Below are positions 161 through 32,902 of a DNA stretch of 50,628 bases, piece by piece (positions within the stretch are counted from its first letter, which is position 1; each line of letters begins with the position of its first letter). Both the position numbers and the translations under genes were made by a program. The stretch lies in IMG/VR virus record IMGVR_UViG_3300028146_000013, positions 1 through 50,628 of that record, one strand, 5' to 3'. The stretch comes from a virus (Duplodnaviria; Caudoviricetes). The notes under the pieces were generated by a model. The model searched no databases. It was not told the DNA's origin and worked only from the letters and a program-made list of their open reading frames with translations.

Positions 161-307
161 TGCATCGCACCATTGCCGCATAGCACCAATTGACGCAGTG
201 CAACTAGCTGCGCTGCAACACAGTGACGTGTGATCGCAATGCACCATGCTTACGCTGCAACGCACTAGCTGCAATGCAACGTGATATATGATGGTGCTAC
301 GCACCAT
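161..307. repeat. Array of eight YGC-N3-GCA motifs (PhaR-box-like)
   Basis: Copies at 161, 177, 194, 209, 235, 256, 270, 295; the last lies in the palindrome ATGGTGC-TAC-GCACCAT (291-307). Assignment to PhaR is inference. Confidence 0.65.
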
Positions 308-326
308 AGACTAGCCTAGTCGTCGG

Positions 327-342
327 TGTTCCACGTGGAACC
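327..342. promoter_or_regulatory. parS: Chromosomal-type parS site
   Basis: TGTTCCACGTGGAACC; 14-bp perfect palindrome GTTCCACGTGGAAC matching the conserved bacterial parS consensus. Confidence 0.8.
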
Positions 343-345
343 GAG

Positions 346-419
346 TTATGCACAGCTTATCCACAGCTAGCTAGCTCAATGGAATCAATGACTTAGCCTG
401 TGGATAACCCTGTGGATAA
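346..419. promoter_or_regulatory. Cluster of four DnaA boxes, two per strand
   Basis: TTATGCACA 346-354 and TTATCCACA 357-365 (+); TGTGGATAA 399-407 and 411-419 (TTATCCACA on -). Confidence 0.85.
383..395 (+). promoter_or_regulatory. IHF binding site
   Basis: AATCAATGACTTA matches WATCAANNNNTTR exactly and lies between the two DnaA-box pairs. Confidence 0.7.
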
Positions 420-681: not shown

Positions 682-978
682 ATGCCACGGTTTCGACGCA
701 ACAATATTCGGTCCGCCAAGCTACGGCCCGAGCAAGTCATCACACTCCGACAGGAATACGAAGCAGGCGCTACGCAAGGCGAGCTAGCGCAGCGCTATGG
801 CCTAGGCGTTGGGCAGGTTGGCCGAATCGTAAGGGGAGAAGCCTGGAACGCTCTGCCGACCGCTGCGGCGCCTACAGCCCCTATCTATAAGAGCCCCGAG
901 ACATGGCAGTCAGAGGCGGACGCTAGCATGGCGCGGCTCATGGCTGATCCCGAGCTAGCCAAGCTCATCAAGCCCTGA
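682..978 (+). CDS. HTH DNA-binding protein
   Basis: KLRPEQVITLR...TQGELAQRYGLGVGQVGRIVRGEAW resembles the C-terminal HTH of phage HNH endonucleases; AGGAG RBS. Confidence 0.7.
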   Translation: MPRFRRNNIRSAKLRPEQVITLRQEYEAGATQGELAQRYGLGVGQVGRIVRGEAWNALPTAAAPTAPIYKSPETWQSEADASMARLMADPELAKLIKP

Positions 979-984
979 ATGCTG

Positions 985-999
985 TAGGGGATTCCCCTA
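985..999. promoter_or_regulatory. Palindrome, possible operator
   Basis: TAGGGGA-T-TCCCCTA in the intergenic region before the early genes. Confidence 0.3.
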
Positions 1000-1082
1000 A
1001 CTGATTTTCAGGTCGCATTCTGCTGTCCTCTTGCTACCCTGTTCGGGTCGATTCGATTCCGTTACCAAACAAGGAGCAGACA

Positions 1083-1244
1083 ATGACCAAATCAGTACAG
1101 GTTAGCTACGGGGCCTATAAGGCATACCGGGGCGCGATTGTGGCCGCAGGCAAGATTGTAGCCATGACCGCAAAGGCTTACAGCACGCGGCACCAGGCAT
1201 CTGCTGCGGCCCGTGCGCTTCGTTTCTCAATTGGTGCCGTATGA
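1083..1244 (+). CDS. Small hypothetical protein (53 aa, not in ORF track)
   Basis: AAGGAG RBS; MTKSVQVSYGAY...; ATGA overlap with the next ORF. Confidence 0.65.
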   Translation: MTKSVQVSYGAYKAYRGAIVAAGKIVAMTAKAYSTRHQASAAARALRFSIGAV

Positions 1245-1423
1245 GCATTCCTATCCGCCTCTCAATGTTCGAGTTGCTGCGCATCATGGGCCCTAGCCAT
1301 GTTGACGCGGGACAGTCGGCTGATGCGGCCGACCTGGCAGAGTCCCTTGATGATGACATGGTGGACTATGACAATTGCGAATGGGTAGCGCCTCCCAGGG
1401 GCTACATGGGCGACGAAGGCTAG
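1241..1423 (+). CDS. Small acidic hypothetical protein
   Basis: Translationally coupled to the upstream ORF; Asp-rich. Confidence 0.55.
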   Translation: MSIPIRLSMFELLRIMGPSHVDAGQSADAADLAESLDDDMVDYDNCEWVAPPRGYMGDEG

Positions 1424-1434
1424 CTAGGACGCTA

Positions 1435-1467
1435 GGTTATGGGGGGCCAGGGGGGTCCCCCATAGCC
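1435..1467 (+). other. Intergenic RNA hairpin
   Basis: GGTTATGGGGG pairs with CCCCCATAGCC; no U-tract. Confidence 0.55.
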
Positions 1468-1505
1468 GAGTGACTAGAGGGCTGAGTTACCAACAGGAGG
1501 GACGA

Positions 1506-1586
1506 ATGAGATCTACATTGAATACAGCGACATTCCTACTAGTGCTGGTTGCGCTAGTGGTGCTGTCGAAGGTTGGCGGACTATGA
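1506..1586 (+). CDS. 26-aa single-TM peptide
   Basis: AGGAGG RBS; MRSTLNTATFLLVLVALVVLSKVGGL. Confidence 0.55.
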   Translation: MRSTLNTATFLLVLVALVVLSKVGGL

Positions 1587-1726
1587 GCCAGTCTAAACCC
1601 GGTGCAGGCTTTACGATCATTGAGACAGTAGTAAGCCTGCTATTCGATGTGCTTAGGGCATTGCCGTTTGCGGCAATGGTGTTTGCGCTGGCATTTGCAG
1701 CAATCAAGATAGGAGGACAATGGTAG
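1583..1726 (+). CDS. 47-aa membrane peptide with a prepilin-like G|FTIIE motif
   Basis: MSQSKPGAGFTIIETVVSLLF...; ATGA overlap with the upstream ORF. Confidence 0.55.
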   Translation: MSQSKPGAGFTIIETVVSLLFDVLRALPFAAMVFALAFAAIKIGGQW

Positions 1727-1899
1727 TGGACAGTTACACGGCGGTCGGCATAGCCGAAGGGTTCATCGATGCAGAGTCAGATGAACAGGTTATTGAAGCT
1801 TGGCAGTACCTGCACACCAGCGGGTTGGCTTACAAGCTTCAGGGTTGGTTTGGACGCAATGCGCAGCAAATGCTGCGCGAAGGAGTGATACATGACTAA
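1720..1899 (+). CDS. Conserved phage hypothetical protein (59 aa)
   Basis: AGGAGG RBS; AWQYLHTSGLAYKLQGWFGR resembles a widespread phage early-protein family. Confidence 0.75.
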   Translation: MVVDSYTAVGIAEGFIDAESDEQVIEAWQYLHTSGLAYKLQGWFGRNAQQMLREGVIHD

Positions 1900-2161
1900 C
1901 GAAGACAAAGGCTATTTAGAGGGCATGTTGGGCGGTAGCTTTGGACCGAAACGGGCCCGAGTTCCCAGCGAGGGCGACCAAGTGAGGCTAGAGGGGCTAG
2001 TGGATGCAATCGGGCTGTACGAGACTGTGCAGCTACTCGCGACCATCGCAGGCGATAAGGCTGATCACATCCGAGCTAGCTACCAGGACGAACATCTAGC
2101 CTCGCGTTGGGACAGGGCTGCGCACGAGATCAGCGCGGCGTTTGTGCCTGCTAGTCTATGA
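1892..2161 (+). CDS. Hypothetical protein
   Basis: AAGGAG RBS; overlaps the upstream gene. Confidence 0.65.
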   Translation: MTNEDKGYLEGMLGGSFGPKRARVPSEGDQVRLEGLVDAIGLYETVQLLATIAGDKADHIRASYQDEHLASRWDRAAHEISAAFVPASL

Positions 2162-2182
2162 AGCTAGTCTTTCAAGGCATAG

Positions 2183-2229
2183 GCGTAGCCATCGGGATAG
2201 CAGCGGTCTTGCTGCTATCCTGGTTATGC
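2183..2229 (+). other. Intergenic RNA hairpin
   Basis: CGGGATAGCAGC pairs with GCTGCTATCCTG, with outer arms. Confidence 0.55.
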
Positions 2230-2273
2230 TACGGGTTAGTGCAAGTTCTGAGGGCTATTTGGAGGGCCATTAC

Positions 2274-2435
2274 ATGACAGAGTTTACACCAGCCAAGCTT
2301 GCCAAGCTCCGTAAAGCCTACGGGGCTGCAGTTGCAAGCGGGGCCGAGCAATTCGAGTTTGAGGGCCATCCGTTGCTAGTGGCCTACGCGAAGTATCTAA
2401 TCGAATATCTGGAGGGTCGATTCAATGGAACATAA
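2274..2435 (+). CDS. Small hypothetical protein
   Basis: GGAGG RBS before ATG 2274 (MTEFTPAK); start revised from the ORF track. Confidence 0.7.
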   Translation: MTEFTPAKLAKLRKAYGAAVASGAEQFEFEGHPLLVAYAKYLIEYLEGRFNGT

Positions 2436-2673
2436 AACGCACAAAGGGATTTACTACTTCCCGACGTATCGGGCCGCGCATACCTTCGCGTTTCAGAATG
2501 GCTACCCGACTAACCGCATCATCAACTACTCGCGGGGCTGGGCCATTCAAGGCGGGATATCTGGCGACTACGCGGGGCCGCACGGGCTAAAGATCGGTGA
2601 TTGGTATCCACGCGGGGTAGATAAACCATTGCGGCAACGGAAACTCCCGCATGGGTTGGTACTGATCAAATGA
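2425..2673 (+). CDS. Hypothetical protein
   Basis: GGAGG RBS; packed in the early operon. Confidence 0.6.
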   Translation: MEHKTHKGIYYFPTYRAAHTFAFQNGYPTNRIINYSRGWAIQGGISGDYAGPHGLKIGDWYPRGVDKPLRQRKLPHGLVLIK

Positions 2674-2861
2674 GACGCCCAGCCTCAAAGCTGACCGCCG
2701 CGCAAGTAGCTGAGATGCGCCAGCGCTATCGCGAGGGCTGGAGTCAATCCAAGTTAGCCAACCATTACGGGGTAGGGATTGGTCATGTCGGACGCATCGT
2801 CCGGGGCGAGGTATGGCAGACACTTGAAAGTGGTTGGAGTAGCCCCAATGAAGTTGTTTAG
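2670..2861 (+). CDS. HTH DNA-binding protein, paralog of 682..978
   Basis: KLTAAQVAEMR...SQSKLANHYGVGIGHVGRIVRGEVW. Confidence 0.7.
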   Translation: MRRPASKLTAAQVAEMRQRYREGWSQSKLANHYGVGIGHVGRIVRGEVWQTLESGWSSPNEVV

Positions 2862-3003
2862 GAGGTTAAAGGATCGATGCCAGGTTAGAAAGCCAATTCA
2901 GAAACTGGAGGAGGTTGACTATCAGGAAAAGACTAATGAGGCTATTAAATGGCTAGGGGCTAAGTGGCTCCTAGCCAAACCGATTAAGAGAAAGGTTACC
3001 TAA
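2848..3003 (+). CDS. Small basic hypothetical protein
   Basis: GGAG RBS before ATG 2848. Confidence 0.5.
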   Translation: MKLFRRLKDRCQVRKPIQKLEEVDYQEKTNEAIKWLGAKWLLAKPIKRKVT

Positions 3004-3016
3004 AACGGAGAAGGCA

Positions 3017-3427
3017 ATGAGCAAATTTATCAAGGGCAAAAAACTGGGCACTTGGGATGATACCAAGGATGCATTTGTGGCTATTTTAGGGGGGCTAGAT
3101 CACGAGGAACTGCATGTTCTTTGGCTTGATAGCCACGGGAATATTATAGAGGCTGAGTGCATGGCAACGGGCAATGAGCGTGAAGTTGCAGTGCCTATGC
3201 TCAAAATTCTAGAGCGAGGGCAGGAACTAGGCGCCGCCCGGTTCATTCTGTCCCACAATCATCCAGGGGAAGAGGAAAAGCCAATTCCCAGTATGAACGA
3301 CATTAAAACGACTATTGCAGCGGGCACAATGGGGTTTACCCGTGGCCTTAACTTGCTAGACCACATTGTGGTGGGTAAGCAAAAAGGCACGTCGATTGCG
3401 ATGGAAGTTCTTGGTATGTATCGCTAG
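3017..3427 (+). CDS. RadC-like JAB/MPN domain protein
   Basis: EELHVLWLD, HNHP...PSMND and LLDHIVV motifs. Confidence 0.88.
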   Translation: MSKFIKGKKLGTWDDTKDAFVAILGGLDHEELHVLWLDSHGNIIEAECMATGNEREVAVPMLKILERGQELGAARFILSHNHPGEEEKPIPSMNDIKTTIAAGTMGFTRGLNLLDHIVVGKQKGTSIAMEVLGMYR

Positions 3428-3429
3428 AT

Positions 3430-3473
3430 CGCAGCGGGTTGGGGACTAGGCAACTAGTCCCTTTCCCGGTGCA
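3430..3473 (+). other. Intergenic RNA hairpin with GCAA tetraloop
   Basis: GGGACTAG-GCAA-CTAGTCCC with outer arms. Confidence 0.6.
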
Positions 3474-3509
3474 ATTTCGCACTAGGTTACCCTTTTAAGG
3501 AGCAAAGTT

Positions 3510-4583
3510 ATGAAATCAGGATTATCAATTACCGCCATGGCCGCCGAGCTAGAGCGGCAAGCCAATGCAAAGCGCGATTTCATCGCAGGGACCCAACAGG
3601 TTGCTATTCGCGAGGATAGCTCAATGGCTATTGTCCTACCGGACACGGCAGTTGAGTTTGGGACCAACGCGATATTCCGTCGCCAAATGGCCGAGCACTA
3701 CAAGATCCCTCACGAGTACATCGAACGATTGCGCACGATGGCTGCGTTCAAGCCGCTGTTCGCCCAAACGTTTAATGACCATCTGCAGAAGCAACCTTCA
3801 CGACAGATGATTAGGACCCTAGACAACACAGCGCGGGCCTTTAGGTCTGATCGATTCCGGCCCCTGGATAACATCGACCTTGCAGAGTCAGTTCTCCCGG
3901 TAGCGATGGACTCAGGGGCTGAGTTGGTGAGTTCGCAATTCACTGACTCGCGTTTCTATATGAAGTTCCTGTTCCCCAAGCTTGAGATTGAAGTTAAGAA
4001 GGGCGACGTGGTTCAACTAGGGCTTGCGCTGGCTAACAGTGAAGTAGGCATGGGGGCTCTAGTGGTTGAGCCGCTCATTTACCGTCTGGTGTGTCTCAAC
4101 GGCATGATCATGCCTGACTACGGCCATCGCCGTTATCATGTCGGGAAAAAGGCTGAGGAGTCTGAGTTAGCCTATGAGATGTACAGTAACGAGACTCGCC
4201 AGCTTGACGATGCCGCGCTATTCGCTAAGATCCGCGACACCGTTAAGGGGCTGTTGAACCGCGATGTCTTGGAGACCATCGTGGCAAAGATGCGTGACGC
4301 TGCTGATCAGCCGATTGAAGGCACCAATATCAACGGGGTAGTTGAGGTGCTGGCGAAGAAACTGAACTATGGCGAAGGTACGAAGCACGGGATTCTCAAA
4401 CATTTGATCATGGGCGGCGACTTGAGCCGCTATGGGCTGATGAACGCCATCACCCGGCAGTCGCAGGACGAAGATGACTATGATGTGGCGACCAAGATGG
4501 AGCACGATGGGGCGCGGGTGATAGAACTCCCGCGCAATGATTGGAAGCAGATAGCCAGCGCAGCGCTGGAAAAGGCTGCTTAA
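3510..4583 (+). CDS. DUF932-like phage/plasmid protein
   Basis: RAFRSDRFRPLDN, NSEVGMGAL and YRLVCLNGM motifs; AAGGAG RBS. Confidence 0.8.
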   Translation: MKSGLSITAMAAELERQANAKRDFIAGTQQVAIREDSSMAIVLPDTAVEFGTNAIFRRQMAEHYKIPHEYIERLRTMAAFKPLFAQTFNDHLQKQPSRQMIRTLDNTARAFRSDRFRPLDNIDLAESVLPVAMDSGAELVSSQFTDSRFYMKFLFPKLEIEVKKGDVVQLGLALANSEVGMGALVVEPLIYRLVCLNGMIMPDYGHRRYHVGKKAEESELAYEMYSNETRQLDDAALFAKIRDTVKGLLNRDVLETIVAKMRDAADQPIEGTNINGVVEVLAKKLNYGEGTKHGILKHLIMGGDLSRYGLMNAITRQSQDEDDYDVATKMEHDGARVIELPRNDWKQIASAALEKAA

Positions 4584-4685
4584 TGACAATACGGTAGCAG
4601 GAATCTCCCTTCCTGGGTAACCCGCTGAGTGGCGGCAGTGGCTATCGGAATAGCCGCCACATCTTTAAGGCAAAGGAGCAAGGTA

Positions 4686-5018
4686 ATGTTGACTAATCAG
4701 GAGTATCGAGCGATTCGACGGGCCGCGAGGCATATCGAGCGCAGCAAGAAACGGTTTGATTTTTGGGGGAGCGCACGGCCCGCCGATATTAATGGGGTTG
4801 GTTGCCCGGCAGCCTGGATAGGCTTTTTCTTGGACATGCCAAATGATCTCTACGAGTTCGCTGCATTGGTAGCAAAAAGACTTGGTTTTCGGGACCTTCT
4901 ATCGTTTCTGCAGGAGCTAGATGCCATCGATAATGATTGGCACTACAACAATCGAAAGGCCGCCAAGGTTCTTAGACAATTCGCGGACAATCAAAGGAGC
5001 AAGGTAAATGTCAAGTAA
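4686..5018 (+). CDS. Hypothetical protein
   Basis: AAGGAG RBS before ATG 4686; bounded by a 16-nt direct repeat. Confidence 0.65.
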   Translation: MLTNQEYRAIRRAARHIERSKKRFDFWGSARPADINGVGCPAAWIGFFLDMPNDLYEFAALVAKRLGFRDLLSFLQELDAIDNDWHYNNRKAAKVLRQFADNQRSKVNVK

Positions 5019-5199
5019 TGCATGCATCATAGAAAACTGCGATCAGGTTTGTAAGCCAAACTCTAGGTTTAACATCTGTGTTAGATGCCGTGGGCGGATT
5101 GGCTACGCAATCCTCAAAGGTCCGGGCTGGACGATGAGCCGCAAGCGTAAGCTAGCGCTCTACACCGACCGGATGAACTATCTGGGGTATCGCAAGTGA
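5008..5199 (+). CDS. Small Cys-rich (possible Zn-binding) protein
   Basis: CIIENC...C...CVRC; AAGGAG RBS. Confidence 0.6.
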   Translation: MSSNACIIENCDQVCKPNSRFNICVRCRGRIGYAILKGPGWTMSRKRKLALYTDRMNYLGYRK

Positions 5200-5504
5200 G
5201 AACGCGGCGTAAGTTCACAGATCAACAGAAACGCAAGATTCTAGCGGAAGCTGAGGCAGCAGGGCAAGCAAAGCCAGTGCTGATCAAACACAAGCTAGCC
5301 TCTAGCGTCTTTGCCCGCTGGAAACGAGACCTAGCCCCCGAGCGTGTGTTAGCTAAGCCAAACGGCAAGGTCAAGGCTGCTAAGCCGGTTTCCTTGGAGG
5401 CTATCGTCTATCTACGCCATGCCAGGAAGGCATGGGACGCCGGGAAGTCCACGCGGGGCGAGTTGCTCGCCCGGTTAGCTCTAGACGTTTTGGAGGGCAA
5501 ATGA
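5196..5504 (+). CDS. HTH protein of the transposase-HTH type, no catalytic domain
   Basis: RRKFTDQQKRKILAEA...SVFARWKR. Confidence 0.6.
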   Translation: MRTRRKFTDQQKRKILAEAEAAGQAKPVLIKHKLASSVFARWKRDLAPERVLAKPNGKVKAAKPVSLEAIVYLRHARKAWDAGKSTRGELLARLALDVLEGK

Positions 5505-5680
5505 CACTGGACGAAGCCAAAGTGATTCTAGGCGATGCTATTGACGCAGACGGCAATCTTAAGACTCTGGATCAGTATACATCTTGGGATAAAGACCATC
5601 CCGACACCGTATCGCTAGACGGGTATTTTACCGCCGATCAGCTAGAGGCCATTGTAATTTACATGAGGGAAACCAAATGA
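5501..5680 (+). CDS. Hypothetical protein
   Basis: GGAGG RBS; ATGA overlap; VSLDGYFTADQLEAI. Confidence 0.65.
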   Translation: MTLDEAKVILGDAIDADGNLKTLDQYTSWDKDHPDTVSLDGYFTADQLEAIVIYMRETK

Positions 5681-5856
5681 AGTGGTTCGCAGGCATTGGG
5701 GGGATGCTACTCGCAGCGACAGGCGCGGGGTTCGCAGGCTTCTATCTGTGGGAAGGCACCAACCCAGTCGGGACCTTCTTGGTAGGCGTTATGCTCGGCG
5801 CGGTCGTCGGAATGCTCTGGCTCTATTACTACGGGGACCCGTTCGATGGATGCTAA
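5677..5856 (+). CDS. Two-TM membrane protein (59 aa, not in ORF track)
   Basis: MKWFAGIGGMLLAATGAGFAGFYLW...FLVGVMLGAVVGMLWLYYY; ATGA overlap. Confidence 0.65.
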   Translation: MKWFAGIGGMLLAATGAGFAGFYLWEGTNPVGTFLVGVMLGAVVGMLWLYYYGDPFDGC

Positions 5857-6175
5857 ACCGTACGTCTGTAGAGACTTTCATGCCGACAAAGACGTACCGG
5901 GCTATTGCGAGGGGTGCAAGCAACCCGAGGGCGACCATTACATCAAAAAGTGGCGCTCGAAGTGCCCTGAAGGCTTTGACGAGCGGGTGACGATTGATGG
6001 GGTGGTGAACGGTTATGCTCATTGCCGCTATCATGGGACCGTTCAAGAGGGTGTTACTCCTGAAGATCTTGAACGTCTGTTCGGCCATCCGCAGTTCGGG
6101 TCCCGAGACGTGAAGATTTGGTTCCAAGAGTGCGCTAACGAGTGGCGATTCTCGATTACTAGGCATCTAGATTAG
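5846..6175 (+). CDS. Cys/His-containing hypothetical protein
   Basis: Fills the operon slot; CEGC motif. Confidence 0.55.
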   Translation: MDAKPYVCRDFHADKDVPGYCEGCKQPEGDHYIKKWRSKCPEGFDERVTIDGVVNGYAHCRYHGTVQEGVTPEDLERLFGHPQFGSRDVKIWFQECANEWRFSITRHLD

Positions 6176-6184
6176 GAGGAGGCT

Positions 6185-6454
6185 ATGATGGACCTTCAAC
6201 CAGGGGACTTGTGCGTGGTGGTGCAGAACGAGTGGAATATGGTGGACTTCGCTAGGGCCAGTCACTTGATCGGACGGCATGTGATATTGACGAGGATACT
6301 TGATATTCCTTGGGGCAAATGCCCGCCTTACTGGCATGGAACAGGGCTACCTGATTGGCTGGCGATTAGTTACAAGTCGCTGCGGAAGATCCCGCCGCCC
6401 GCGTTAGATGATGAAGAAACCGATGAACTACCAAAGGAAATTGAACATGTTTAA
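6185..6454 (+). CDS. Hypothetical protein
   Basis: AGGAGG RBS; LQPGDLCVVV N-terminus. Confidence 0.65.
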   Translation: MMDLQPGDLCVVVQNEWNMVDFARASHLIGRHVILTRILDIPWGKCPPYWHGTGLPDWLAISYKSLRKIPPPALDDEETDELPKEIEHV

Positions 6455-6881
6455 GCCGTTTGATGAGTTAACGAAGAAAGAGAAGCTTGAGCGCTGGACG
6501 AACGTGGTCCGGGTGATGCAAAAGCTGACCAAGCATCAAAGGAAGCATCACTTTTTCATGGAGAACTGGGGGGAGGAAACTGACTGCGGAACCAAAGCTT
6601 GCGCCGCAGGGTTCTGCGGGATGGACCCTTGGTTTCAGGCCCAGGGCATCGAGCTACAGCAGGATGAAAGCAAGGAAGTCTATGGGTTCAGGGTTGATAA
6701 TGTACTGCTACTTGGAAGTAGCTACTCTCTTAAAATCATGCTATCGAAGTTCTTCGGCTATGAAGGCACAAGAAAGATTTTCTATGGCGAGATAAATGAA
6801 ATCGGCAGTCAGGACCTTAACAAGACCTACGCCCAAGTCATGCGCCAGATCCGCAACCACGTGAAGGAGTTGAGCAAATGA
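6447..6881 (+). CDS. Phage protein with a CGTxxCxAG motif
   Basis: WGEETDCGTKACAAGFC; AAGGA RBS. Confidence 0.65.
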   Translation: MFKPFDELTKKEKLERWTNVVRVMQKLTKHQRKHHFFMENWGEETDCGTKACAAGFCGMDPWFQAQGIELQQDESKEVYGFRVDNVLLLGSSYSLKIMLSKFFGYEGTRKIFYGEINEIGSQDLNKTYAQVMRQIRNHVKELSK

Positions 6882-7072
6882 GCTTCGACACCCATTGGAA
6901 CGATCTAGTAGCGACCGGGGGAATCTGGACCGAAACTGACCGCAGAATCGCGAAGCTGTTCTATAATTTTGGCCAATTCGACACAGCAACAAAGGTGCGG
7001 GAGGCCTTGTATGATCCCGCGTTAGATGATAAAATTGCGCCTCCACCAATCCAAGGAGTTTCAGATGAATGA
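6878..7072 (+). CDS. Hypothetical protein
   Basis: AAGGAG RBS; ATGA overlap. Confidence 0.6.
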   Translation: MSFDTHWNDLVATGGIWTETDRRIAKLFYNFGQFDTATKVREALYDPALDDKIAPPPIQGVSDE

Positions 7073-7574
7073 CGTAGCACAGGAAAAGAGACAAGTAAAG
7101 CTGAGGAAGGAAGCGGTTTTTAGCGAAGATGGCAAGCTGAGCCATATCGCACTGACCTACAGCGACGGCACGCGGGGCGAGATCCAGGTTCCCGCCAGCG
7201 TAATGCAGGAGGCTGCAGCGACCGGGGCACTCTACAAGCTGGGGCAACTGGCGAATGGCGAAGGCGACCTTGACGTACTCAAAGCTGCAGTAGGCCAGTT
7301 GATCGAGCAGTGGCGCTCGGGCGAGTGGCGGCAGCGGGCCGAGGGCGGACAGGGTACCTCGATCATTATGAAGGCCATCATGGAGTTCAAGGGAGTCACG
7401 GCGAACACGGCGCGAGACTTCCTGGCATCGAAGACGATGCAACAGAAGATCGACATGAAGCGGATTAAGGGCCTGGATGCCATTGTGGCGCGATTGGAGG
7501 CCGAGGAAGAGGCGAAGTTGCGGGCCAAGGGCAAGATTGAGGAGGTAGACGAGAGCTTGCTGGAGGGGCTCTAG
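7065..7574 (+). CDS. Charged helical hypothetical protein, possibly DNA-binding
   Basis: AAGGAG RBS; last gene before a terminator. Confidence 0.7.
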   Translation: MNDVAQEKRQVKLRKEAVFSEDGKLSHIALTYSDGTRGEIQVPASVMQEAAATGALYKLGQLANGEGDLDVLKAAVGQLIEQWRSGEWRQRAEGGQGTSIIMKAIMEFKGVTANTARDFLASKTMQQKIDMKRIKGLDAIVARLEAEEEAKLRAKGKIEEVDESLLEGL

Positions 7575-7642
7575 GCGCGTAGGAGGCCCTACGGCGAGGG
7601 CAGGCTCTGCGACGCCGAGTCCGACTTTAACGGGCGGGAACG

Positions 7643-7671
7643 GGGGGAGCGGCGACTCCCCCTTTTCTTTT
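7643..7671 (+). terminator. Rho-independent terminator
   Basis: GGGGGAG-cggcga-CTCCCCC followed by TTTTCTTTT. Confidence 0.85.
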
Positions 7672-7681
7672 GCGCGACCCC

Positions 7682-7712
7682 TTGACAGCGGCGCAGCGCC
7701 GTGATCTACTCT
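7682..7712 (+). promoter_or_regulatory. Candidate sigma70 promoter with a palindromic spacer
   Basis: TTGACA at 7682; CGGCGC-A-GCGCCG at 7689-7701; -10 candidates TCTACT or TACTCT; directly after the terminator. Confidence 0.55.
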
Positions 7713-7757
7713 CACGTCTCCAGGCGTCGCACGTCTGCATAATGTGAGGAAATTCAA

Positions 7758-7946
7758 TTGGTTACGCATGACGAAAAGGTTGAGCGGCTCCGCTCCGTCA
7801 AGGCCATCCACGTCTCAGGCTGGGGCCGGAAGCTGGCTAAAGACGGCAAGGCCGGTTCTACCCGCAATGTGGGAGCTACCCGACGTAAAGAGATCATCTG
7901 GGCTAACAAGCAAGCCGCGAAGCGGATTAGGAAGGAGGCTAAATGA
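7758..7946 (+). CDS. Small basic hypothetical protein
   Basis: GAGGA RBS; coupled to the next ORF. Confidence 0.5.
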   Translation: MVTHDEKVERLRSVKAIHVSGWGRKLAKDGKAGSTRNVGATRRKEIIWANKQAAKRIRKEAK

Positions 7947-8149
7947 ACATCCCGGCTCTATACGCTTTGCATGAGGAACTAGGCAAGCTACTTCAAAAGG
8001 CCCGCGACTACGATTTGTCAACAGCGATCACAGCATTAAATAACTTAGGTGCAGAAACGATTGAACGCAATGATGAACTAGTGAGTCTCCGAGAAGAAGT
8101 CCGCCAGTGGCGCATCCTGGTTAATCAAGATCCTGAGAAGCCCTTTTGA
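7943..8149 (+). CDS. Coiled-coil hypothetical protein
   Basis: AAGGAGG RBS; ATGA overlap. Confidence 0.6.
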   Translation: MNIPALYALHEELGKLLQKARDYDLSTAITALNNLGAETIERNDELVSLREEVRQWRILVNQDPEKPF

Positions 8150-8252
8150 TCGCAACCCTACGACTGGTCCGCCGAACCGCGATAGCTCTAGGGATTCTAC
8201 TAGCCGCAATTGTGATATGCATCATAGCAATGGTAATTACTTGAGGTAACCC

Positions 8253-8855
8253 ATGAAAACCTTACTTTGCTTGCTTTTAATCAGCGGCTCCGCGTTAGCT
8301 CAAGACCAGACCTTTTTGGTCACTGGGACAATTACCCAAAACATGTGGGGAGTTCCCGAAACGGGAATGCTACAGTTTCAGTACACAATTAACCCGTTGA
8401 TCAATCCTGAGCAAGACCCTAGTCAGCGGGGGCCGGTTACTAGCGTCGCTTTTAGTGTCAACGGAGGAGCTTTCCAGCCTGATAACGGCTGGGGCACTGT
8501 AGACATAGCTAGTGGAGGCTTTACGCTCTATCCTGGCAGCGGAGCGATGATCAGTTACGACGCAAGACAAGGCACCATGCTTGTCTATGATTACAGCCTG
8601 AATGGCGAGTTCGCCAACGTCACGAGCGTGCAGCAAGTAAGCGCTTCGCTGCCTTCGCAGGCTCCTGAGATTGACTCGAAAGGGTGGGCGAGTGGATTGA
8701 CCCTGTTGATTGGGGGATTGTTGGTCCTGAGAGGGCGACGCTCTGCTTCCGATGAACCGGCGCAGGCGTCGCCCCCGCCTCTTGTAAAAGGTTTAGGGGA
8801 GCGGTTCGATTCCGCTGCCGGTTCCACTATCGATGGAGAATCAGAGCATGGTTGA
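8253..8855 (+). CDS. Exported protein with a PEP-CTERM-like (APEID/VPEID-CTERM) sorting signal
   Basis: Sec signal MKTLLCLLLISGSALA; APEID + TM (ASGLTLLIGGLLVL) + RGRR. Confidence 0.72.
   Translation: MKTLLCLLLISGSALAQDQTFLVTGTITQNMWGVPETGMLQFQYTINPLINPEQDPSQRGPVTSVAFSVNGGAFQPDNGWGTVDIASGGFTLYPGSGAMISYDARQGTMLVYDYSLNGEFANVTSVQQVSASLPSQAPEIDSKGWASGLTLLIGGLLVLRGRRSASDEPAQASPPPLVKGLGERFDSAAGSTIDGESEHG
8754..8826 (+). ncRNA. tRNA-like element (degenerate)
   Basis: GAACCGGC/GCCGGTTC acceptor-like stem; T-arm AGCGG-TTCGATT-CCGCT; ends TTCCA; D and anticodon arms non-canonical. Confidence 0.45.
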
Positions 8856-9045
8856 CGACAAAGAGCTTGCCGCCATCATTGCCGCCGAGATATTCGCGAT
8901 TGGCGCGGATCGTTCATCAGGCGAAAAGGTAAGCCGTATTCAGTTCATGCACGGCAGGAATCCCGAGCGTGCGGGTTGCGGATACGGCGAAAAGCCGCTC
9001 GCCGACTTCATCGAACTGGTGCTGAAAAAGCACCGTAGCTACTAA
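8833..9045 (+). CDS. Hypothetical protein
   Basis: ORF in operon; the true start may be the internal ATG after GGAG. Confidence 0.55.
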   Translation: MENQSMVDDKELAAIIAAEIFAIGADRSSGEKVSRIQFMHGRNPERAGCGYGEKPLADFIELVLKKHRSY

Positions 9046-9066
9046 CAGCGGAGAAGGTGTCAAACC

Positions 9067-9234
9067 ATGAGATATGTATATCGACGCGCGAAATGGTGGG
9101 AAGAGTTATGGGCATCGCTTGCAGCTTTGTACATCAAGGAAGAGTGCTACCACGACTGGCTAGTCGCACATCGGTTCCGAACAAGGCACTGGCTTGACGA
9201 TACTGATTCACAGTCTGATAGGGGCGCGGAATGA
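9067..9234 (+). CDS. Small hypothetical protein (55 aa, not in ORF track)
   Basis: Translated by eye; AAGGTG RBS; ATGA overlap with the next ORF. Confidence 0.5.
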   Translation: MRYVYRRAKWWEELWASLAALYIKEECYHDWLVAHRFRTRHWLDDTDSQSDRGAE

Positions 9235-9410
9235 ACGAGCTTACCAGAGAGCAACGGCAAGCTAACTCAGCGACCCACAAGACGCGCTATTCGGACTCGT
9301 CGCTCTATGATGAAGTCTGCACCGTTTGCGGCGCCCGCGACTGGACAATGGGGCCGGACGAGATCGGCGACCGCCCATGCTCTACGAATGATGCCGCAGT
9401 AAAGCCATGA
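9231..9410 (+). CDS. Small CxxC-containing protein (59 aa, not in ORF track)
   Basis: YDEVCTVCGARD; ATGA overlaps at both ends. Confidence 0.55.
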   Translation: MNELTREQRQANSATHKTRYSDSSLYDEVCTVCGARDWTMGPDEIGDRPCSTNDAAVKP

Positions 9411-9715
9411 ATATAGCTATCATCTTCCTTTGCCTAACCATTCTAGTACAGCTTTACAGCCTACGCATATGTCGGCGAACGATTGACAGCCTACGCTCAC
9501 AACTCAAGCCTCATAAATACTTTGCAATAAGTGATTCAGATTTTACGAACGCTAAGCTAGCTGAAGTAGTAGACGGTGCTGATGAGTCTATCTTTAAAAA
9601 ATGCCGCTTTGAAGGCTGCGATTTCTCTGGGCTAAAAGGTTACATCTGGCTAGATAACTGCATAGGCATAAACTGCACTGGACTTGACGAGTTGCTTAAA
9701 GGAGTTTCAAAATGA
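9407..9715 (+). CDS. Membrane-anchored protein with short pentapeptide-repeat-like segments
   Basis: N-terminal TM; SDFTNAKL and IFKKCRFEGCDFSG; AT-richer sequence. Confidence 0.5.
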   Translation: MNIAIIFLCLTILVQLYSLRICRRTIDSLRSQLKPHKYFAISDSDFTNAKLAEVVDGADESIFKKCRFEGCDFSGLKGYIWLDNCIGINCTGLDELLKGVSK

Positions 9716-9972
9716 ACAGTCCCTTTAGCGATCCCCCGCTTCCCACTCCCTGGTGGCTACGGGATGCCTCTGACCAAGAGCTAGTCCGACACCGGAAGCT
9801 GATGGATGAGCTAACCAAGCTAGAAACAGAGTGTAAGCACTCCCCAACACAGGGCGTAGGCGGTGTCTGGGTTTGCTTTAAGTGTGGGAGTGCTATGCCT
9901 ATGGCTCCAAGCTCTAACGGGCCCGACGACGGCCCCGACGACGAAGACGAAGATGACGCTGACGACATCTAA
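9712..9972 (+). CDS. Zn-ribbon-like protein with acidic tail
   Basis: CKH...CFKC; DDEDEDDADD; AAGGAG RBS. Confidence 0.55.
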   Translation: MNSPFSDPPLPTPWWLRDASDQELVRHRKLMDELTKLETECKHSPTQGVGGVWVCFKCGSAMPMAPSSNGPDDGPDDEDEDDADDI

Positions 9973-10183
9973 CTGCACTTGCCTGAAGTGCGTCCTTACC
10001 AGAGCCTATGATGCGTGGCTAACTCGTCAAGAGGAAGAGTCAGTGTCCCAAGAGGAAGTAGTTCTTGCGTGTGTGAAGTTCTTGGGAGAGGTAGTCGGCG
10101 ACATGCCCAAGTATGAAGCCTTTAAACCTATCCGTATCATCATAGCTGGCGAACGTGAAGACATTCCATTGAGGCTTAACTGA
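9863..10183 (+). CDS. Hypothetical protein (start probably internal, MTLTTSN)
   Basis: CTCLKC motif; TGATG overlap with the next ORF. Confidence 0.45.
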   Translation: MSGFALSVGVLCLWLQALTGPTTAPTTKTKMTLTTSNCTCLKCVLTRAYDAWLTRQEEESVSQEEVVLACVKFLGEVVGDMPKYEAFKPIRIIIAGEREDIPLRLN

Positions 10184-10404
10184 TGTTAATAGCTGAATGC
10201 GAGTGCGAAGAGTTTACGAAGATTTACAAAGTGATAATCAGACGTGCTGGGCATCGAATCCCACTCTACGTAACACGTTTCGCTGCTAACTGGTTAACGC
10301 CTATGATGGCAATAGCACAGGCTGCTAGAGAGGCAGACCAACTTTATCCTGACTGTCAAATCATGGACGTTCCAGATTATAGCCTTGAATTGGAAGGTGG
10401 TTGA
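10183..10404 (+). CDS. Hypothetical protein
   Basis: Coupled ORF. Confidence 0.5.
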   Translation: MLIAECECEEFTKIYKVIIRRAGHRIPLYVTRFAANWLTPMMAIAQAAREADQLYPDCQIMDVPDYSLELEGG

Positions 10405-10405
10405 A

Positions 10406-10588
10406 ATGCCTCGACATGCTGACATTAATAGACCGACGAAGCTCACGCTGATGCTGCCCGCTACCGTGCGGGCCCGGTTAGACAAACATCTCTATAGCCC
10501 TTCAATGGGAAAGGTGCCCCTGGGAGCCTATCAGGCTTTCTTTATCGAGCGCATCAATGAATACCTCGACCGCCAGCCGAGACTATGA
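10406..10588 (+). CDS. Ribbon-helix-helix-like small protein
   Basis: MPRHADINRPTKLTLMLPATVRARLD: alternating strand followed by helices. Confidence 0.5.
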   Translation: MPRHADINRPTKLTLMLPATVRARLDKHLYSPSMGKVPLGAYQAFFIERINEYLDRQPRL

Positions 10589-10886
10589 GCGGCTGGGGAA
10601 GCTTTGCGAGGCGCGGCAAGAACTCAACCGGGCGGAGTATCTGCGCTACAGCCGACTCCTCAGCGGGATCAACATGAGTGACGAAAAAGTAGCTCTCTGG
10701 CGGCAGAAGTGCGCCGACTTCACGATTACCCGAGAGGAATACGCCGAGGCGATTGCTTACCTGCGGGCCGGGCGACTCAACGCCGCCCCTCAGCCGAAGG
10801 TGAAAAAGCCTAAAAAAGCAGGCAAAAAGAGCGACCCCCGACAGGTTGACCTAACCGACTTGATTAACGAACTAGAGAAGCTATAA
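10557..10886 (+). CDS. Hypothetical protein (start uncertain)
   Basis: ORF with Lys-rich linker and helical C-terminus. Confidence 0.55.
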   Translation: MNTSTASRDYERLGKLCEARQELNRAEYLRYSRLLSGINMSDEKVALWRQKCADFTITREEYAEAIAYLRAGRLNAAPQPKVKKPKKAGKKSDPRQVDLTDLINELEKL

Positions 10887-11016
10887 TATGCGACATTATG
10901 ACTACCTTGATGCCCGACTTCACCCGCACGTGCCGGATCTGCGGCACTACGCCGACTGTTTTGGTACCGGGGCACGTTCAGCCGCGCACCGAACTCTGCT
11001 GGGCGCACTTTAGCCC

Positions 11017-11919
11017 ATGCGCTACCCCTTCCCAGAAGTCATCGACTCCTCAATCATGGGAGTCTACAAGTCCTGCCCCCAGAAGGTTTATAAGGAATAC
11101 ATCGCCAACTGGAAGTCTAAGGGCCCCTCCATACATCTTCACGCTGGAGGGGCCTTTGCGCGGGGCATGGAAGTCGCGAGGCTCAGCTTCTATGTCGATG
11201 GGCTAAGCGCTGACGCTGCAGTTGCCGCAGGCAGGGATGCCCTAGCTGAGTTCTACGGCGACTTCGACGCCGGGAGTCACGCCAAATCCCTTTCAGGGAT
11301 GATCAAGGCGTTTGACTTCTATTTCGCCAATTACCCTCTAGCTCAAGACCACCCCCCGATCATCCTTCCGGGCGGGCGCAAAGGTATTGAGTTCTCATTC
11401 GCTGAACCCCTTCCTATCCTTCATCCCGAAACCGGGAACCCGCTGATCTATTGCGGCCGGATGGACGCTATTCTGTCCGCATTTGGAGGCCAATTCATAT
11501 GCGACGAAAAGACGACAACTTCCTTGGGGCCTACCTGGGGAAAACAATGGGACCTACGGGCTCAATTCACTGGCTACGTGTGGGGCTGTGGGAAGGCTGG
11601 GATACATATCGATGGCGCTCTGATCAGAGGCGTTTCGATCTTGAAGACGAAGAACGAGACGCAGCAGGCCATCAGCTACCGCCCCGAGTTCCACGTCGAA
11701 AGGTGGTACGAGGAGTTGCTAGAGTGGGTGGAGGAGATGATCGGGTGTTGGAAGAAAGACAAGTGGAGGCATAATCTGGACCATGCGTGTGCTGACTATG
11801 GGGGCTGCGCCTTCCGCCAAGTCTGCACCTATAAAGAGGAGGCTGCAGTTAGCCATCTAGAGACATTCTTTGAGCGCCGGTTCTGGAACCCGCTGACCAG
11901 GACAGAGACACTCTTGTGA
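11017..11919 (+). CDS. Cas4-like PD-(D/E)XK exonuclease
   Basis: N-terminal SCP; GRMD...ICDEKT...QFTGY; C-terminal C-x5-C-x5-C. Confidence 0.85.
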   Translation: MRYPFPEVIDSSIMGVYKSCPQKVYKEYIANWKSKGPSIHLHAGGAFARGMEVARLSFYVDGLSADAAVAAGRDALAEFYGDFDAGSHAKSLSGMIKAFDFYFANYPLAQDHPPIILPGGRKGIEFSFAEPLPILHPETGNPLIYCGRMDAILSAFGGQFICDEKTTTSLGPTWGKQWDLRAQFTGYVWGCGKAGIHIDGALIRGVSILKTKNETQQAISYRPEFHVERWYEELLEWVEEMIGCWKKDKWRHNLDHACADYGGCAFRQVCTYKEEAAVSHLETFFERRFWNPLTRTETLL

Positions 11920-12001
11920 AGCTATTTATTATGATAGTTCTATGCGCCGCTAGTATAATAGATCAACTTATAGGGCGGAAGCTTGAAGGTACCATCGAGT
12001 C

Positions 12002-12253
12002 GTGTACACTGTTTATCATTTATTTCATAGACAACAAATGCCCCTAGCAGAGTTTGAAATCAACGAAATTTGTGTATGGCAACTCCTGTCTGGGCTTGGC
12101 GCGGCAAAGTTATGTCATCCATGGCCCCTAGAGAACACAGACAAAATGTTTGGAGATCTTGAAGTTGAGTTTGAGGCGACGGTTAAGCTATCCTCCAAGC
12201 ACTCAACCATAGCCCTCATGTCGATTAATTCCGAGGTAAAAAGGTATGAATGA
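12002..12253 (+). CDS. Hypothetical protein (start uncertain)
   Basis: ORF in an AT-richer insert. Confidence 0.35.
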   Translation: MYTVYHLFHRQQMPLAEFEINEICVWQLLSGLGAAKLCHPWPLENTDKMFGDLEVEFEATVKLSSKHSTIALMSINSEVKRYE

Positions 12254-12443
12254 AGCTCACTTCACTTCAATGACTGACCAGCAGCGATTCAACTATACAG
12301 TAGAACTTTGGATGCTATGGCAGATGCGATATCGTATAGGAGGGCCATTAGTAGAGAACTATACTAGAATAGGAAACCCTGTTGTTGCTCGCGAGATTTG
12401 GCTAGCTGAACAGTTAGGATTTAGGCATAGCCAACAAAACTAA
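12246..12443 (+). CDS. Hypothetical protein
   Basis: GAGGT RBS. Confidence 0.5.
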   Translation: MNEAHFTSMTDQQRFNYTVELWMLWQMRYRIGGPLVENYTRIGNPVVAREIWLAEQLGFRHSQQN

Positions 12444-12458
12444 AGGAAATTAAGGCAA

Positions 12459-13244
12459 ATGAAACTTACATTAATGATTGCGGCTATGTTAGCCAGTGGC
12501 TCTGCCATGGCCGATGGCCTAGCGCCAGTAGCTAGGGGGTGTCCTAACTCAGGCCACATTATGGCCTATAGAGGCACTCTAGTTGACAAGGCTCTAATTC
12601 AGAAGAACTTCAACGCTGTGATCCTTTGCAACCTGCAGCAGAACCCCAACATCAACAACTGGATTGCATCGATGAAACCGTTCGATCTAGCGAGGCTATC
12701 GACCCAGCTAGACTTAACGACCAAGCAATTCGCCGGGGTACCGACAGTGACCCAGGTTCTGGCGACGTTAGCGACCCGGCTCAACGCCTCGAATCTAGTC
12801 AAGATCCGCTCAGCATTCGGGCCCCAGACCGACGCCCAGGTGGTAGCGAGGTCCTACGCGGCGGTTCAATCGGCCTACTTCACGGCCCAGCATCCGCTCC
12901 CCATGCGACTCTCCAGGGCTCAAATTCTAGCCAACGGGCTCCAGGTTAAGGCCGGAACCGTGACGGTTCAAGGCACCATCTCAGCCTCCCCCATCCTAGA
13001 CATGACTATCTATGAGGTCTATCTTGAATACTACACCGCCGGGTGGACCATGAGTGCAGCTTTAGCAGCAGCAGGGACCTATATAGGCTCAGAACTTATC
13101 ATCGCGGCGGGGGCCGGCACAGCCGTTGGCTCTGGCATCTACTGGCTCGATGACCAGCTTAGCGAGAATATCAACATATGGATTGGTGACCAAATTGGCT
13201 CTGGTAACCTTTGCATTGGGCTAGGAGGCTCAGATTGTCTATGA
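12459..13244 (+). CDS. Exported protein with a Gly/Ala-rich hydrophobic C-terminus
   Basis: Signal MKLTLMIAAMLASGSAMA; MSAALAAAGTYIGSELIIAAGAGTAVGSGIYWL. Confidence 0.75.
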   Translation: MKLTLMIAAMLASGSAMADGLAPVARGCPNSGHIMAYRGTLVDKALIQKNFNAVILCNLQQNPNINNWIASMKPFDLARLSTQLDLTTKQFAGVPTVTQVLATLATRLNASNLVKIRSAFGPQTDAQVVARSYAAVQSAYFTAQHPLPMRLSRAQILANGLQVKAGTVTVQGTISASPILDMTIYEVYLEYYTAGWTMSAALAAAGTYIGSELIIAAGAGTAVGSGIYWLDDQLSENINIWIGDQIGSGNLCIGLGGSDCL

Positions 13245-13432
13245 AACTCATTATGATTGGGTGTCTTCTGGCGTTCGCTGGGGACTTGCTGGGCAGGCGA
13301 CTCTGGCTGTTGAACGTTCCCTTTAAGCGGCTTCGCGAGGAGGCGGCGAAGGGGAATCTGAGGCTCAGCGGCTTCCCTGCGGCTCTTTGGTTTACGGGGC
13401 TGGGGCTAGTGATTGTGGGGCTGTTCCTGTGA
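13241..13432 (+). CDS. 63-aa two-TM membrane protein
   Basis: ATGA overlap with the upstream gene; two hydrophobic segments around a basic loop. Confidence 0.65.
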   Translation: MKLIMIGCLLAFAGDLLGRRLWLLNVPFKRLREEAAKGNLRLSGFPAALWFTGLGLVIVGLFL

Positions 13433-14259: not shown

Positions 14260-14271
14260 AAGGTAACTCTA

Positions 14272-14724
14272 ATGTCAATCTTTGATCTTGATTCTCTTTT
14301 GAATGCCACCACCACCGAGGCCCTAGAGCGCCGTCCTCCACTTCCCGCAGGTTCCACGTTCGTCGGGATCTTAGGCGAGCCGAAAGGCCGCAACGGAGAG
14401 AAGAACGGCAAGACCTGGACTGCGGTGGACTTCCCTGTGGAGGTTGACCTGACCACCGACCCTGCAGCGGTGAAAGCAGTGGGGACCGACAAGTTAGTGA
14501 TGAAGCTAGGAATCATGCTAGACCTGAACGAGGGCGGTATGATCGACTGGGGGAAGGGCAAGAATAATGGGCTACGCCGGGTCCGCGAGGCCCTTGACAT
14601 GAACCAGGCCGGGAAGCCCTTTAGCATTGGTGCTATGCAGGGCAGGCCCATCCGGGTGGTGATCTCCCATCGTGAGCACGAAGGCGAGATCTTCGATGAG
14701 ATCGGTAGCGTTTCCAAGCCTTAA
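14272..14724 (+). CDS. Putative ssDNA-binding protein
   Basis: Position after Sak4-like gene; beta-rich; C-terminal GRPIRVVISHREHEGEIFDEI pattern. Confidence 0.55.
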   Translation: MSIFDLDSLLNATTTEALERRPPLPAGSTFVGILGEPKGRNGEKNGKTWTAVDFPVEVDLTTDPAAVKAVGTDKLVMKLGIMLDLNEGGMIDWGKGKNNGLRRVREALDMNQAGKPFSIGAMQGRPIRVVISHREHEGEIFDEIGSVSKP

Positions 14725-14733
14725 GGAACCCCC

Positions 14734-15087: not shown

Positions 15088-15089
15088 CT

Positions 15090-17902: not shown

Positions 17903-17926
17903 AGAGGTCTATCAACCCCCCGATCT

Positions 17927-19878: not shown

Positions 19879-19900
19879 TATACGTTCCCCTTGAGTCCTT

Positions 19901-20083: not shown

Positions 20084-20094
20084 CAAGTACTCCT

Positions 20095-22257: not shown

Positions 22258-22260
22258 GAG

Positions 22261-32900: not shown

Positions 32901-32902
32901 GA

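Follow-up and report, generated by a model that had tools for sequence, protein, structure and literature searches.

A cluster of host-type sites in the intergenic hub

The window analyzed here is a 50,628-bp stretch of viral DNA (Duplodnaviria; Caudoviricetes) that makes up the entire IMG/VR record IMGVR_UViG_3300028146_000013, for which CheckV gives a completeness of 100% and no end repeats are recorded. Its genes are arranged in a plus-strand block (682..19244) and a minus-strand block (19510..50606), which diverge from a single intergenic hub formed by positions 1–681 and the final 22 bases of the window. Within this hub lie a series of direct repeats, a putative chromosomal-type parS site and four DnaA boxes arranged around a core consensus for integration host factor (IHF), with an A+T-rich inverted repeat farther to the right (Table 1). 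All of the elements that an earlier note on this DNA had listed in the hub are present, each in its place.

Table 1. Features of the intergenic hub and of the first gene on either side
Feature	Position	Strand	Description	Label
Eight same-strand direct repeats	161-306	+	~11 nt, YGCAnnGCAMC; spacing 14-26 bp start to start	D1, D3, D5, D8, D10, D12
Putative chromosomal-type parS	327-342		TGTTCCACGTGGAACC; perfect 14-bp palindromic core 328-341	
Perfect DnaA box pair	346-354, 357-365	+	TTATNCACA; 11 bp start to start; pointing to the spacer	D11
IHF core consensus	383-395	+	WATCAANNNNTTR; in the 33-bp spacer between the box pairs	
Perfect DnaA box pair	399-407, 411-419	-	TTATNCACA; 12 bp start to start; converging on the first pair	D9, I5, I8
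8-bp perfect inverted repeat (564-571/611-618)	564-618		Around a 39-nt A+T-rich stretch; least stable duplex of the region	I22
First gene of the rightward early/replication block	682-978	+	98 aa; weak helix-turn-helix, Sigma70_r4 E 9e-4, below cut-off	
First gene of the leftward block	50046-50606	-	186-aa helix-turn-helix protein; conserved in 6/6 fetched relatives, 38-48% identity	

The DnaA box TTATNCACA occurs five times in the 50,628 bp, where shuffled sequences contain a mean of 0.79 per genome, and four of the five matches fall within 346-419. The expected number of 4-box clusters within 74 bp is ~2e-10. The boxes of each pair are separated by gaps of 2 and 3 bp and lie on one helix face, as follows from their start-to-start spacing of 11 and 12 bp, and the two pairs converge on a 33-bp spacer (366-398). 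This spacer contains the IHF core WATCAANNNNTTR, one of three matches genome-wide, with a chance of ~4e-4 that one would fall in the spacer (a figure that refers to the core consensus only). In the spacer, CTAG recurs with a period of 4 nt rather than the 3 nt expected of a DnaA-trio, and a run of CTAGCTAGCT directly follows the second DnaA box. CTAG is about fourfold denser in the first kilobase (15 sites) than on average (~4 per kb). The fifth perfect DnaA box is isolated at 31272-31280 on the plus strand, within a minus-strand open reading frame (ORF) of the structural block (30947-31663), and is probably a chance match.

The parS-like 16-mer TGTTCCACGTGGAACC is the genome's only site within 3 mismatches of the parS consensus, with two mismatches to the general consensus, and ends three bases left of the first DnaA box. 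A site with at most 2 mismatches is expected by chance within 20 bp of the box cluster with a probability of ~2e-4. Letter for letter, the 16-mer is identical to parS1 and parS4 of P. aeruginosa PAO1 as listed in Table 1 of PMC4368675, a paper that reports any single site to be sufficient for segregation in P. aeruginosa. It differs in its last letter only from the M. xanthus parS consensus given in PMC3899335, which was bound by ParB in gel shifts. Judging from the type of parS together with the IHF site, the host is probably proteobacterial or myxobacterial. A chance origin of the whole stack of sites is excluded by the box shuffles and by the cluster and adjacency expectations.

To identify proteins of the phage that might bind these sites, we searched the genome in six frames with profiles. 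ParB_N, DnaA AAA, DnaA C-terminal and HU/IHF domains were all not found, bearing out the claim of the earlier note that there is no DnaA, ParB or IHF gene. As no such domain is present in the phage frames, any DnaA, IHF or ParB acting here would have to be a host protein. The same searches yielded no tyrosine or serine recombinase, and two HTH_3-like matches, both weak. Because no integrase or resolvase was found, any non-lytic persistence of this phage would have to be episomal.

Direct repeats and their candidate binders

The YGC-N3-GCA motifs start on the plus strand at 161, 177, 194, 209, 235, 256, 270 and 295. Eight of them are packed into 143 bp, compared with 34 in the other 50.5 kb (Poisson P ~2e-13), and five of the genome's eight exact matches to GCANNGCAMC fall in 162-280. 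These repeats are probably sites for a phage-encoded protein and may serve as iterons, operators or a pac-type site; a phage-encoded binder is favored because each related phage has different repeats at the same place. The earlier note had called them PhaR-like boxes, a label that the data do not support. We rejected the label because all eight motifs run in one direction as direct repeats, carry an asymmetric extension and are replaced by other repeats in the relatives. A 7-3-7 palindrome at 291-307 (ATGGTGC TAC GCACCAT) includes the last repeat and lies beside a short TATATA stretch; it looks like an operator.

Two neighboring genes encode candidate repeat binders, one being the 98-aa protein at the head of the rightward block and the other the 186-aa helix-turn-helix protein at the head of the leftward block. 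The 186-aa protein gave zero family matches in sequence searches of Pfam, PHROGs, NCBIfam and PDB. Its AlphaFold model is weak (pLDDT 64), with a best fold match, 2ao9, that is not significant (E 0.1), and the match that points to a small terminase (Atlas row 24, T5 small-terminase cluster, 0.94) is a lead only.

The A+T-rich element and gene content

Farther to the right, the hub contains one of the least stable duplexes of the genome at 569-613, with only 0.01% of the genome's 40-bp windows being less stable. This unstable stretch is located ~150 bp from the last DnaA box and just upstream of the first early gene, and the hairpin-flanked element around it (564-618) may serve in unwinding or in the melting of an early promoter. 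A scan of 1-1100 for sigma-70-like promoters returned 0 sites, and terminator-like hairpins in the same interval are located at 563-580 and 985-999. Within 1-700, GATC is not enriched (2 sites) and CtrA and Fis-like patterns were not found. HIP1 sites are absent from the genome, and the whole window contains 0 Rfam families and 0 tRNAs.

The plus-strand block encodes a RadC-like protein, a DUF932 protein, an exonuclease, a Sak4-like AAA_24 protein, a UDG-PolA fusion and a primase/helicase (18042-19244, plus strand; phrog_14296, E 8e-76). The UDG-PolA fusion (15425-17902, plus strand) joins a uracil-DNA-glycosylase-superfamily domain (residues 3-166) to a 3'-5' exonuclease and a family A polymerase, and is common to the related phages. 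The minus-strand block encodes the large terminase (38457-39917), the portal (36327-38456), a head-closure protein, a podophage GP4-type adaptor domain and Ig-domain proteins. Among isolates, the closest polymerases belong to an uncultured 'Bacteriophage sp.' (47% identity) and to Microcystis phage Mel-JY34 (45%). A BLAST search of positions 1-8000 against 50,697 phage records gave zero matches.

Integrity and origin of the region

The phage was detected in soil-metagenome runs. Contigs from four other such runs (4 study codes) span 1-1019, 22-594, 109-479 and 243-723 with 0 substitutions, and their sole difference from the window is a 1-base deletion at 601 in one contig (X2), outside the cluster of sites. 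That deletion falls within the A+T-rich hairpin-flanked element; together with single-nucleotide polymorphisms at 1352 and 2613 it accounts for all differences across 3 kb. The four contigs contain no joints or loose ends, so that the cluster is continuous with its flanks. The earlier note had raised the prospect that the region might be a chimeric host oriC fragment, and an assembly chimera is excluded by this clean coverage in four independent runs. One contig extends 64 nt beyond window position 1, which therefore need not be a physical genome end.

We also searched for a bacterial or plasmid source of the region. A BLAST search of 150-450 against 72,556 plasmids returned a lone 39-bp match, which falls in the repeat array (232-270) and not in the DnaA/parS part, and which we judged uninformative. 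A scan of 185,579 species genomes for the pattern of a parS and two boxes gave one hit, in a Hydrogenedentota metagenome-assembled genome, and this hit is non-homologous to the phage region. At that locus (L165:7430-7570), two identical parS cores are positioned at the end of or just past an rsmG-like gene and are followed by two DnaA boxes. The possibility that the phage region is a copy of a sampled bacterial locus was rejected, as the sole species-genome hit is not homologous.

Repeats in the hubs of related phages

To compare the hub among relatives, we used 26 IMG/VR loci with a related polymerase, of which ten larger records were scanned (DNA polymerase 27-68% identical) and six were fetched whole (60-68%). 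No nucleotide similarity to the intergenic hub of the window was found in the six fully fetched relatives (0/6). Repeats are present in the hub of five relatives (G001, G003-G006), with a sequence that differs in each lineage, suggesting a phage DNA-binding protein that co-evolves with its sites. Examples from the relatives' hubs (L028:3095-3202, L034:4406-4489, L041:19511-19561) include three copies of a 13-nt unit, a 32-nt tandem pair and paired GTGAC/GTCAC palindromes. Searches of viral contigs for closer relatives with the 186-aa, 98-aa and DUF932 proteins returned 0, 2 (33-37% identity, non-syntenic) and 0 matches, respectively. As no closer carriers of the DnaA/IHF/parS cluster were found, the comparison of its conservation is confined to distant relatives.

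Recurrence of DnaA-box arrays and parS in unrelated viral contigs

A search of viral contigs for two direct boxes followed by a reverse box 20-50 bp on revealed at least 119 stretches (reversed control, 0), and the four-box converging pattern was found in 33 metagenome stretches. The 152 listed loci (IMG/VR, L046-L164; metagenome, L168-L200) fall into 80 sequence families with 3-29 perfect boxes each, typically phased at 11-12 bp. Among the matches listed, the array lies outside any ORF of at least 100 aa in 70 of the 80 family representatives. We examined 126 ORFs flanking the listed arrays. Pointers to a bacterial oriC were DnaA (4), RNase P protein (3) and DnaN (1), and many of the ORFs encode phage hallmarks, namely terminases, portal, capsid, scaffold, phi29-type Gp16 and microvirus-type Rep. 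The terminases comprise Pfam matches to Terminase_3 (3), Terminase_6N (2), TerL_nuclease (1) and TerL_ATPase (1), and PHROGs matches to small terminase (3) and several large-terminase families.

Several of these loci come close to the design of the window. One (L114) has boxes at 0, 12, 54 and 65, a geometry equal to that of the window. In another (L158), 1.4 kb separate a parS and its 2+2 converging boxes from a downstream cluster of genes that encode a primase, a DnaB-like helicase, a split polymerase, an exonuclease and a ribonucleotide reductase. In a third family (L169/L173/L198), which has no protein similarity to the window phage, 14 perfect boxes in an array surround the parS TGTTCCACGTGGAACC, and small early-type genes lie downstream. 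In the phage-like contig of this family (L173:10614-10921), the boxes are mostly paired 3 bp apart with parS in the center, and three tandem ~16-nt repeats are located upstream.

A parS within 30 bp of a DnaA box was found in 51 viral stretches from 25 families (reversed control, 0). This control does not condition on parS, and a few single-box adjacencies may be due to chance, a caveat that leaves the multi-box cases untouched (L158, the L173 family, L202, L203, L237, L238, L248). The flanks of the composites carry phi29-like, microvirus-like and tailed-phage genes, with Phi29_MCP (2), DNA_pol_B_2 (2) and Podovirus_Gp16 (2) among 86 flanking ORFs; DnaA, DnaN and ParB were not found in the flanks of the 25 listed families. 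In an 18.5-kb viral contig (L238:292-360), a parS, two direct boxes, one reverse box and a second identical parS follow one another in ~70 bp. A perfect parS with a DnaA-box match at zero spacing is present in four unrelated contigs (L207, L211, L222 and L244; families 2, 7, 13 and 20), some with phi29-like or microvirus-like neighbors, and a few of these may again be chance adjacencies.

The similarity of the window to these recurrent loci is limited to motifs at positions 321-442. Because it is confined to motifs, the resemblance is convergent rather than inherited, and the independent recurrence of the design in unrelated phages argues for a function. It is possible, if still doubtful, that the locus in the window is one instance of a widespread class of phage cis-elements, made of perfect host DnaA-box arrays, a subset of which is fused to the parS of the host chromosome.

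Comparison with known origins, partition sites and phage elements

Iteron-type origins (P1 oriR, pSC101, RK2 oriV) combine direct repeats, DnaA boxes, an IHF site and an A+T-rich element near a partition site, and DnaA-assisted origins of plasmid prophages are known. The hub of the window resembles iteron-type origins in its layout. It differs from them in its short and irregular repeats, in a partition site of the host-chromosome type and in that neither a Rep nor a Par gene was detected.

Three bacterial loci described in the review PMC5742627 provide a further comparison. As described there, oriC has two oppositely oriented groups of boxes, an IHF site and an abutting unwinding element. The window likewise has consensus boxes in two opposed groups and an IHF core within the DnaA-binding region, whereas it has only 4 boxes and no unwinding element abutting them. 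In datA the essential boxes all point the same way, and an IHF site separates boxes 2 and 3 (PMC5742627); the window shares an IHF site between boxes, but its pairs converge, in contrast to the single orientation of datA. The DARS core consists of three boxes at fixed spacing, with box I opposite to boxes II and III (PMC5742627), whereas the boxes of the window are arranged 2+2 and not 1+2 when compared by this text description. The same source describes E. coli DnaA-box clusters as regulators of DnaA availability, by titration and at datA. Unlike the window, oriC, datA and DARS carry no internal parS, and here the combination is found on a phage. The parS sites of P. aeruginosa and M. xanthus are clustered near the chromosomal origin, whereas that of the window is single and on a phage genome.

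Among phages, DnaA boxes are already known in T5 and parS sites in phi29. In T5 and 25 relatives, the non-coding injection-stop region beside the early genes contains DnaA boxes in pairs, 3 bp apart, according to a preprint (10.1101/866236) that proposes an arrest of injection mediated by membrane DnaA and places the T5 origins elsewhere. We confirmed the boxes of the T5 iss in the sequence (GenBank AY543070) at 9437, 9449, 9498 and 9510, in pairs 12 bp start to start. The window resembles this region in having boxes paired 11-12 bp start to start, four of them within ~80 bp, in a large non-coding region by early genes; like T5, it has its own replication genes and no DnaA, so that the ligand would be host DnaA. 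The four T5 boxes lie on one strand and one of the four is perfect, whereas the pairs of the window converge and are all perfect. T5 has neither a parS nor an IHF core, and the boxes of the window are flanked by a parS. Finally, the T5 boxes are positioned in the terminal repeat and kept in 25 T5-like phages, in contrast to the cluster in the window.

The virulent phage phi29 is described as having no ParB and as carrying five host-type parS sites and, at its early promoters, sites bound by a host master regulator; both kinds of site are used for entrapment in the spore, the parS sites together with host Spo0J (PMC2731898). The window shares with phi29 the lack of its own ParB, the presence of a host chromosomal-type parS and host-regulator sites in a control region, a strategy that would engage the host's segregation machinery through DNA alone. 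The two differ in that phi29 has five parS and Spo0A sites in the setting of Bacillus sporulation, whereas the window has one parS and DnaA/IHF sites. In the open-access literature, covered mostly as titles and listings, we found no account of a phage that joins a chromosomal parS to a DnaA/IHF cluster, nor of the breadth of DnaA-box arrays across viral contigs; two phage genome papers merely report Ori-Finder predictions.

Interpretation of the cluster

The reading that we favor, to which we assign a probability of about 40%, is that 161-620 is a plasmid-like cassette of origin plus centromere, served by host DnaA and IHF and by host ParB, for the initiation of replication and for the positioning and inheritance of unintegrated phage DNA. 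Host DnaA would occupy the box pairs and IHF would bend the spacer between them, so that two DnaA dimers or oligomers could meet. This complex, together with a phage protein on the repeats, would then promote opening of the DNA for the phage primase-helicase and PolA or, alternatively, in a non-lytic state, for the replisome of the host. At parS, host ParB would load and spread, so that the phage DNA might be positioned and segregated like the origin region of the host, and such segregation would make carriage without integration possible. Binding by host proteins, and all that would follow from it, we infer from the sequence throughout.

The cassette reading is supported by the geometry of the boxes and the IHF core, which fits the opposed groups of oriC and the placement of IHF in datA as described in PMC5742627, and by the location of the cluster in the genome's single divergent intergenic hub. 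It also draws on the quality and clustering of the sites, the match of parS to functional P. aeruginosa sites, the iteron-like layout with its unstable stretch, the lack of ligand and integrase genes, the continuity of the cluster with its flanks and the recurrence of the design elsewhere. The earlier note had proposed that the region hijacks the host through DNA alone. What holds of that proposal is that the sites are real, non-random and of high quality, that the ligands would be host proteins and that precedents exist in other phages; conservation among relatives and the PhaR assignment do not.

Several observations weigh against the cassette. None of the ten scanned relatives has a DnaA-box cluster (no two perfect boxes within 300 bp), the densest 300-bp window of the six fully fetched relatives contains 1-3 imperfect boxes, and none of these six has a parS with at most 2 mismatches (0/6), so that the co-conservation for which the earlier note had looked to related phages is missing, an outcome that the note had itself named as refuting its proposal. 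Because the relatives share the polymerase and lack the cluster, DnaA cannot be essential to the replication of the group. On the sequences compared, the hub and its repeat-binding logic are conserved in the group and the DnaA/IHF/parS part is a lineage-specific addition; given its absence from relatives, the cluster would be an accessory adaptation of one lineage and not the core origin mechanism of the group. The phage owns a replisome (PolA, primase-helicase), no Rep family was detected among the genes flanking the hub and the spacing of the repeats is irregular. There is no A+T-rich element directly beside the boxes, the candidate being 150 bp off and possibly an early promoter, and the phage genome has one parS copy only. 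Contigs from the other runs are invariant across the cluster and thus give no population signal of selection. Similar motifs are also found in phages in which a role as origin is unlikely, such as T5 and those whose arrays lie by phi29-type and Microviridae-type genes.

The location of the cluster, 260 bp upstream of the first early gene and between divergent operons, would also suit a switch between dormancy and growth in the manner of phi29, which we regard as unlikely. Host DnaA, together with IHF, would tune or block early transcription according to the growth state of the host, and parS would segregate the silent, unintegrated genome with the host origin or into a resting cell, with no role in DNA opening. 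Such a switch has its precedent in the parS sites of a virulent phage without ParB and in the regulator sites at its early promoters (PMC2731898). It is also consistent with the failure to find an integrase, with the phi29-type genes that flank parS and box composites in other contigs, and with the soil-metagenome source, where slow-growing hosts may be common. However, the lack of sigma-70-like sites in 1-1100 leaves an overlap of boxes and promoter unsupported, there is a single parS, the repressor candidates are limited to weak helix-turn-helix matches, and the relatives manage without the cluster. The multiplying boxes and parS of the phage might instead act as a decoy that soaks up host DnaA and ParB, halting rounds of host replication, disturbing segregation and freeing resources, an explanation that we hold to be improbable. 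The other viral arrays far exceed the needs of an origin (80 listed families, 3-29 perfect boxes), consensus-perfect sites imply high affinity, and control of DnaA availability by box clusters is described in E. coli (PMC5742627). Yet a genome with four boxes and one parS would presumably withdraw little DnaA or ParB before the late stage of infection, boxes that converge so precisely around an IHF core point to a defined complex, and the essential boxes of datA, unlike those here, share one orientation (PMC5742627).

We give equally little credence to a role in entry or packaging, in which membrane-associated DnaA would catch the box pairs as in T5, pausing or anchoring the incoming DNA or protecting its end, while the repeats and the IHF site would form a pac/cosB-like packaging site for a small terminase encoded next door. 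The paired boxes in the injection-stop region of T5 and 25 relatives (10.1101/866236) speak for it, as do the terminase genes that viral box arrays often flank among the matches listed and the small-terminase leads of the adjacent 186-aa helix-turn-helix protein. These leads are not significant, however, the large terminase gene is 10 kb distant, no terminal repeat is recorded and a contig runs 64 nt past position 1. The T5 mechanism is itself merely proposed, and the T5 boxes, on one strand and mostly imperfect, differ from the converging and perfect boxes of the window. A cluster with no selected function, being either a recently captured scrap of origin-proximal host DNA or a chance stack tolerated in non-coding DNA, is very improbable. 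Its absence from every sampled relative would fit, and the Hydrogenedentota locus with parS beside two DnaA boxes shows that a host design exists that could be captured. Against this, chance is excluded by the shuffles and expectations, no extended similarity was found to bacterial or plasmid records (one non-homologous hit in 185,579 species genomes; one 39-bp match in 72,556 plasmids), and similarity to other loci is restricted to the motifs in 321-442. The four boxes and parS all retain an intact consensus, and the same design arose in unrelated phages.

Implications for phage biology

If host DnaA, IHF and ParB assemble at this locus, the phage would be replicated, positioned or inherited like DNA of the host origin without genes for an integrase, Rep or Par. 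The cassette would then offer a mechanism for pseudolysogeny and carrier states, which are common in soil yet poorly explained. That the same reading extends to the wider class of loci, with phage DNA disguised as a host origin so as to capture the initiator and the partition machinery by DNA alone, is a tentative idea that we consider less probable than its converse. Were it true, plasmid-like carriage, positioning or cell-cycle control would be available to phages without a Rep, Par or integrase of their own, including phages with a complete replisome and even phi29-like and microvirus-like phages. The survey of viral contigs suggests a general design, of which the long-puzzling DnaA boxes of T5 would then be a single example. 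The variants of boxes and parS should in that event track the specificity of host DnaA and ParB, and may thus aid the prediction of hosts for uncultured phages.

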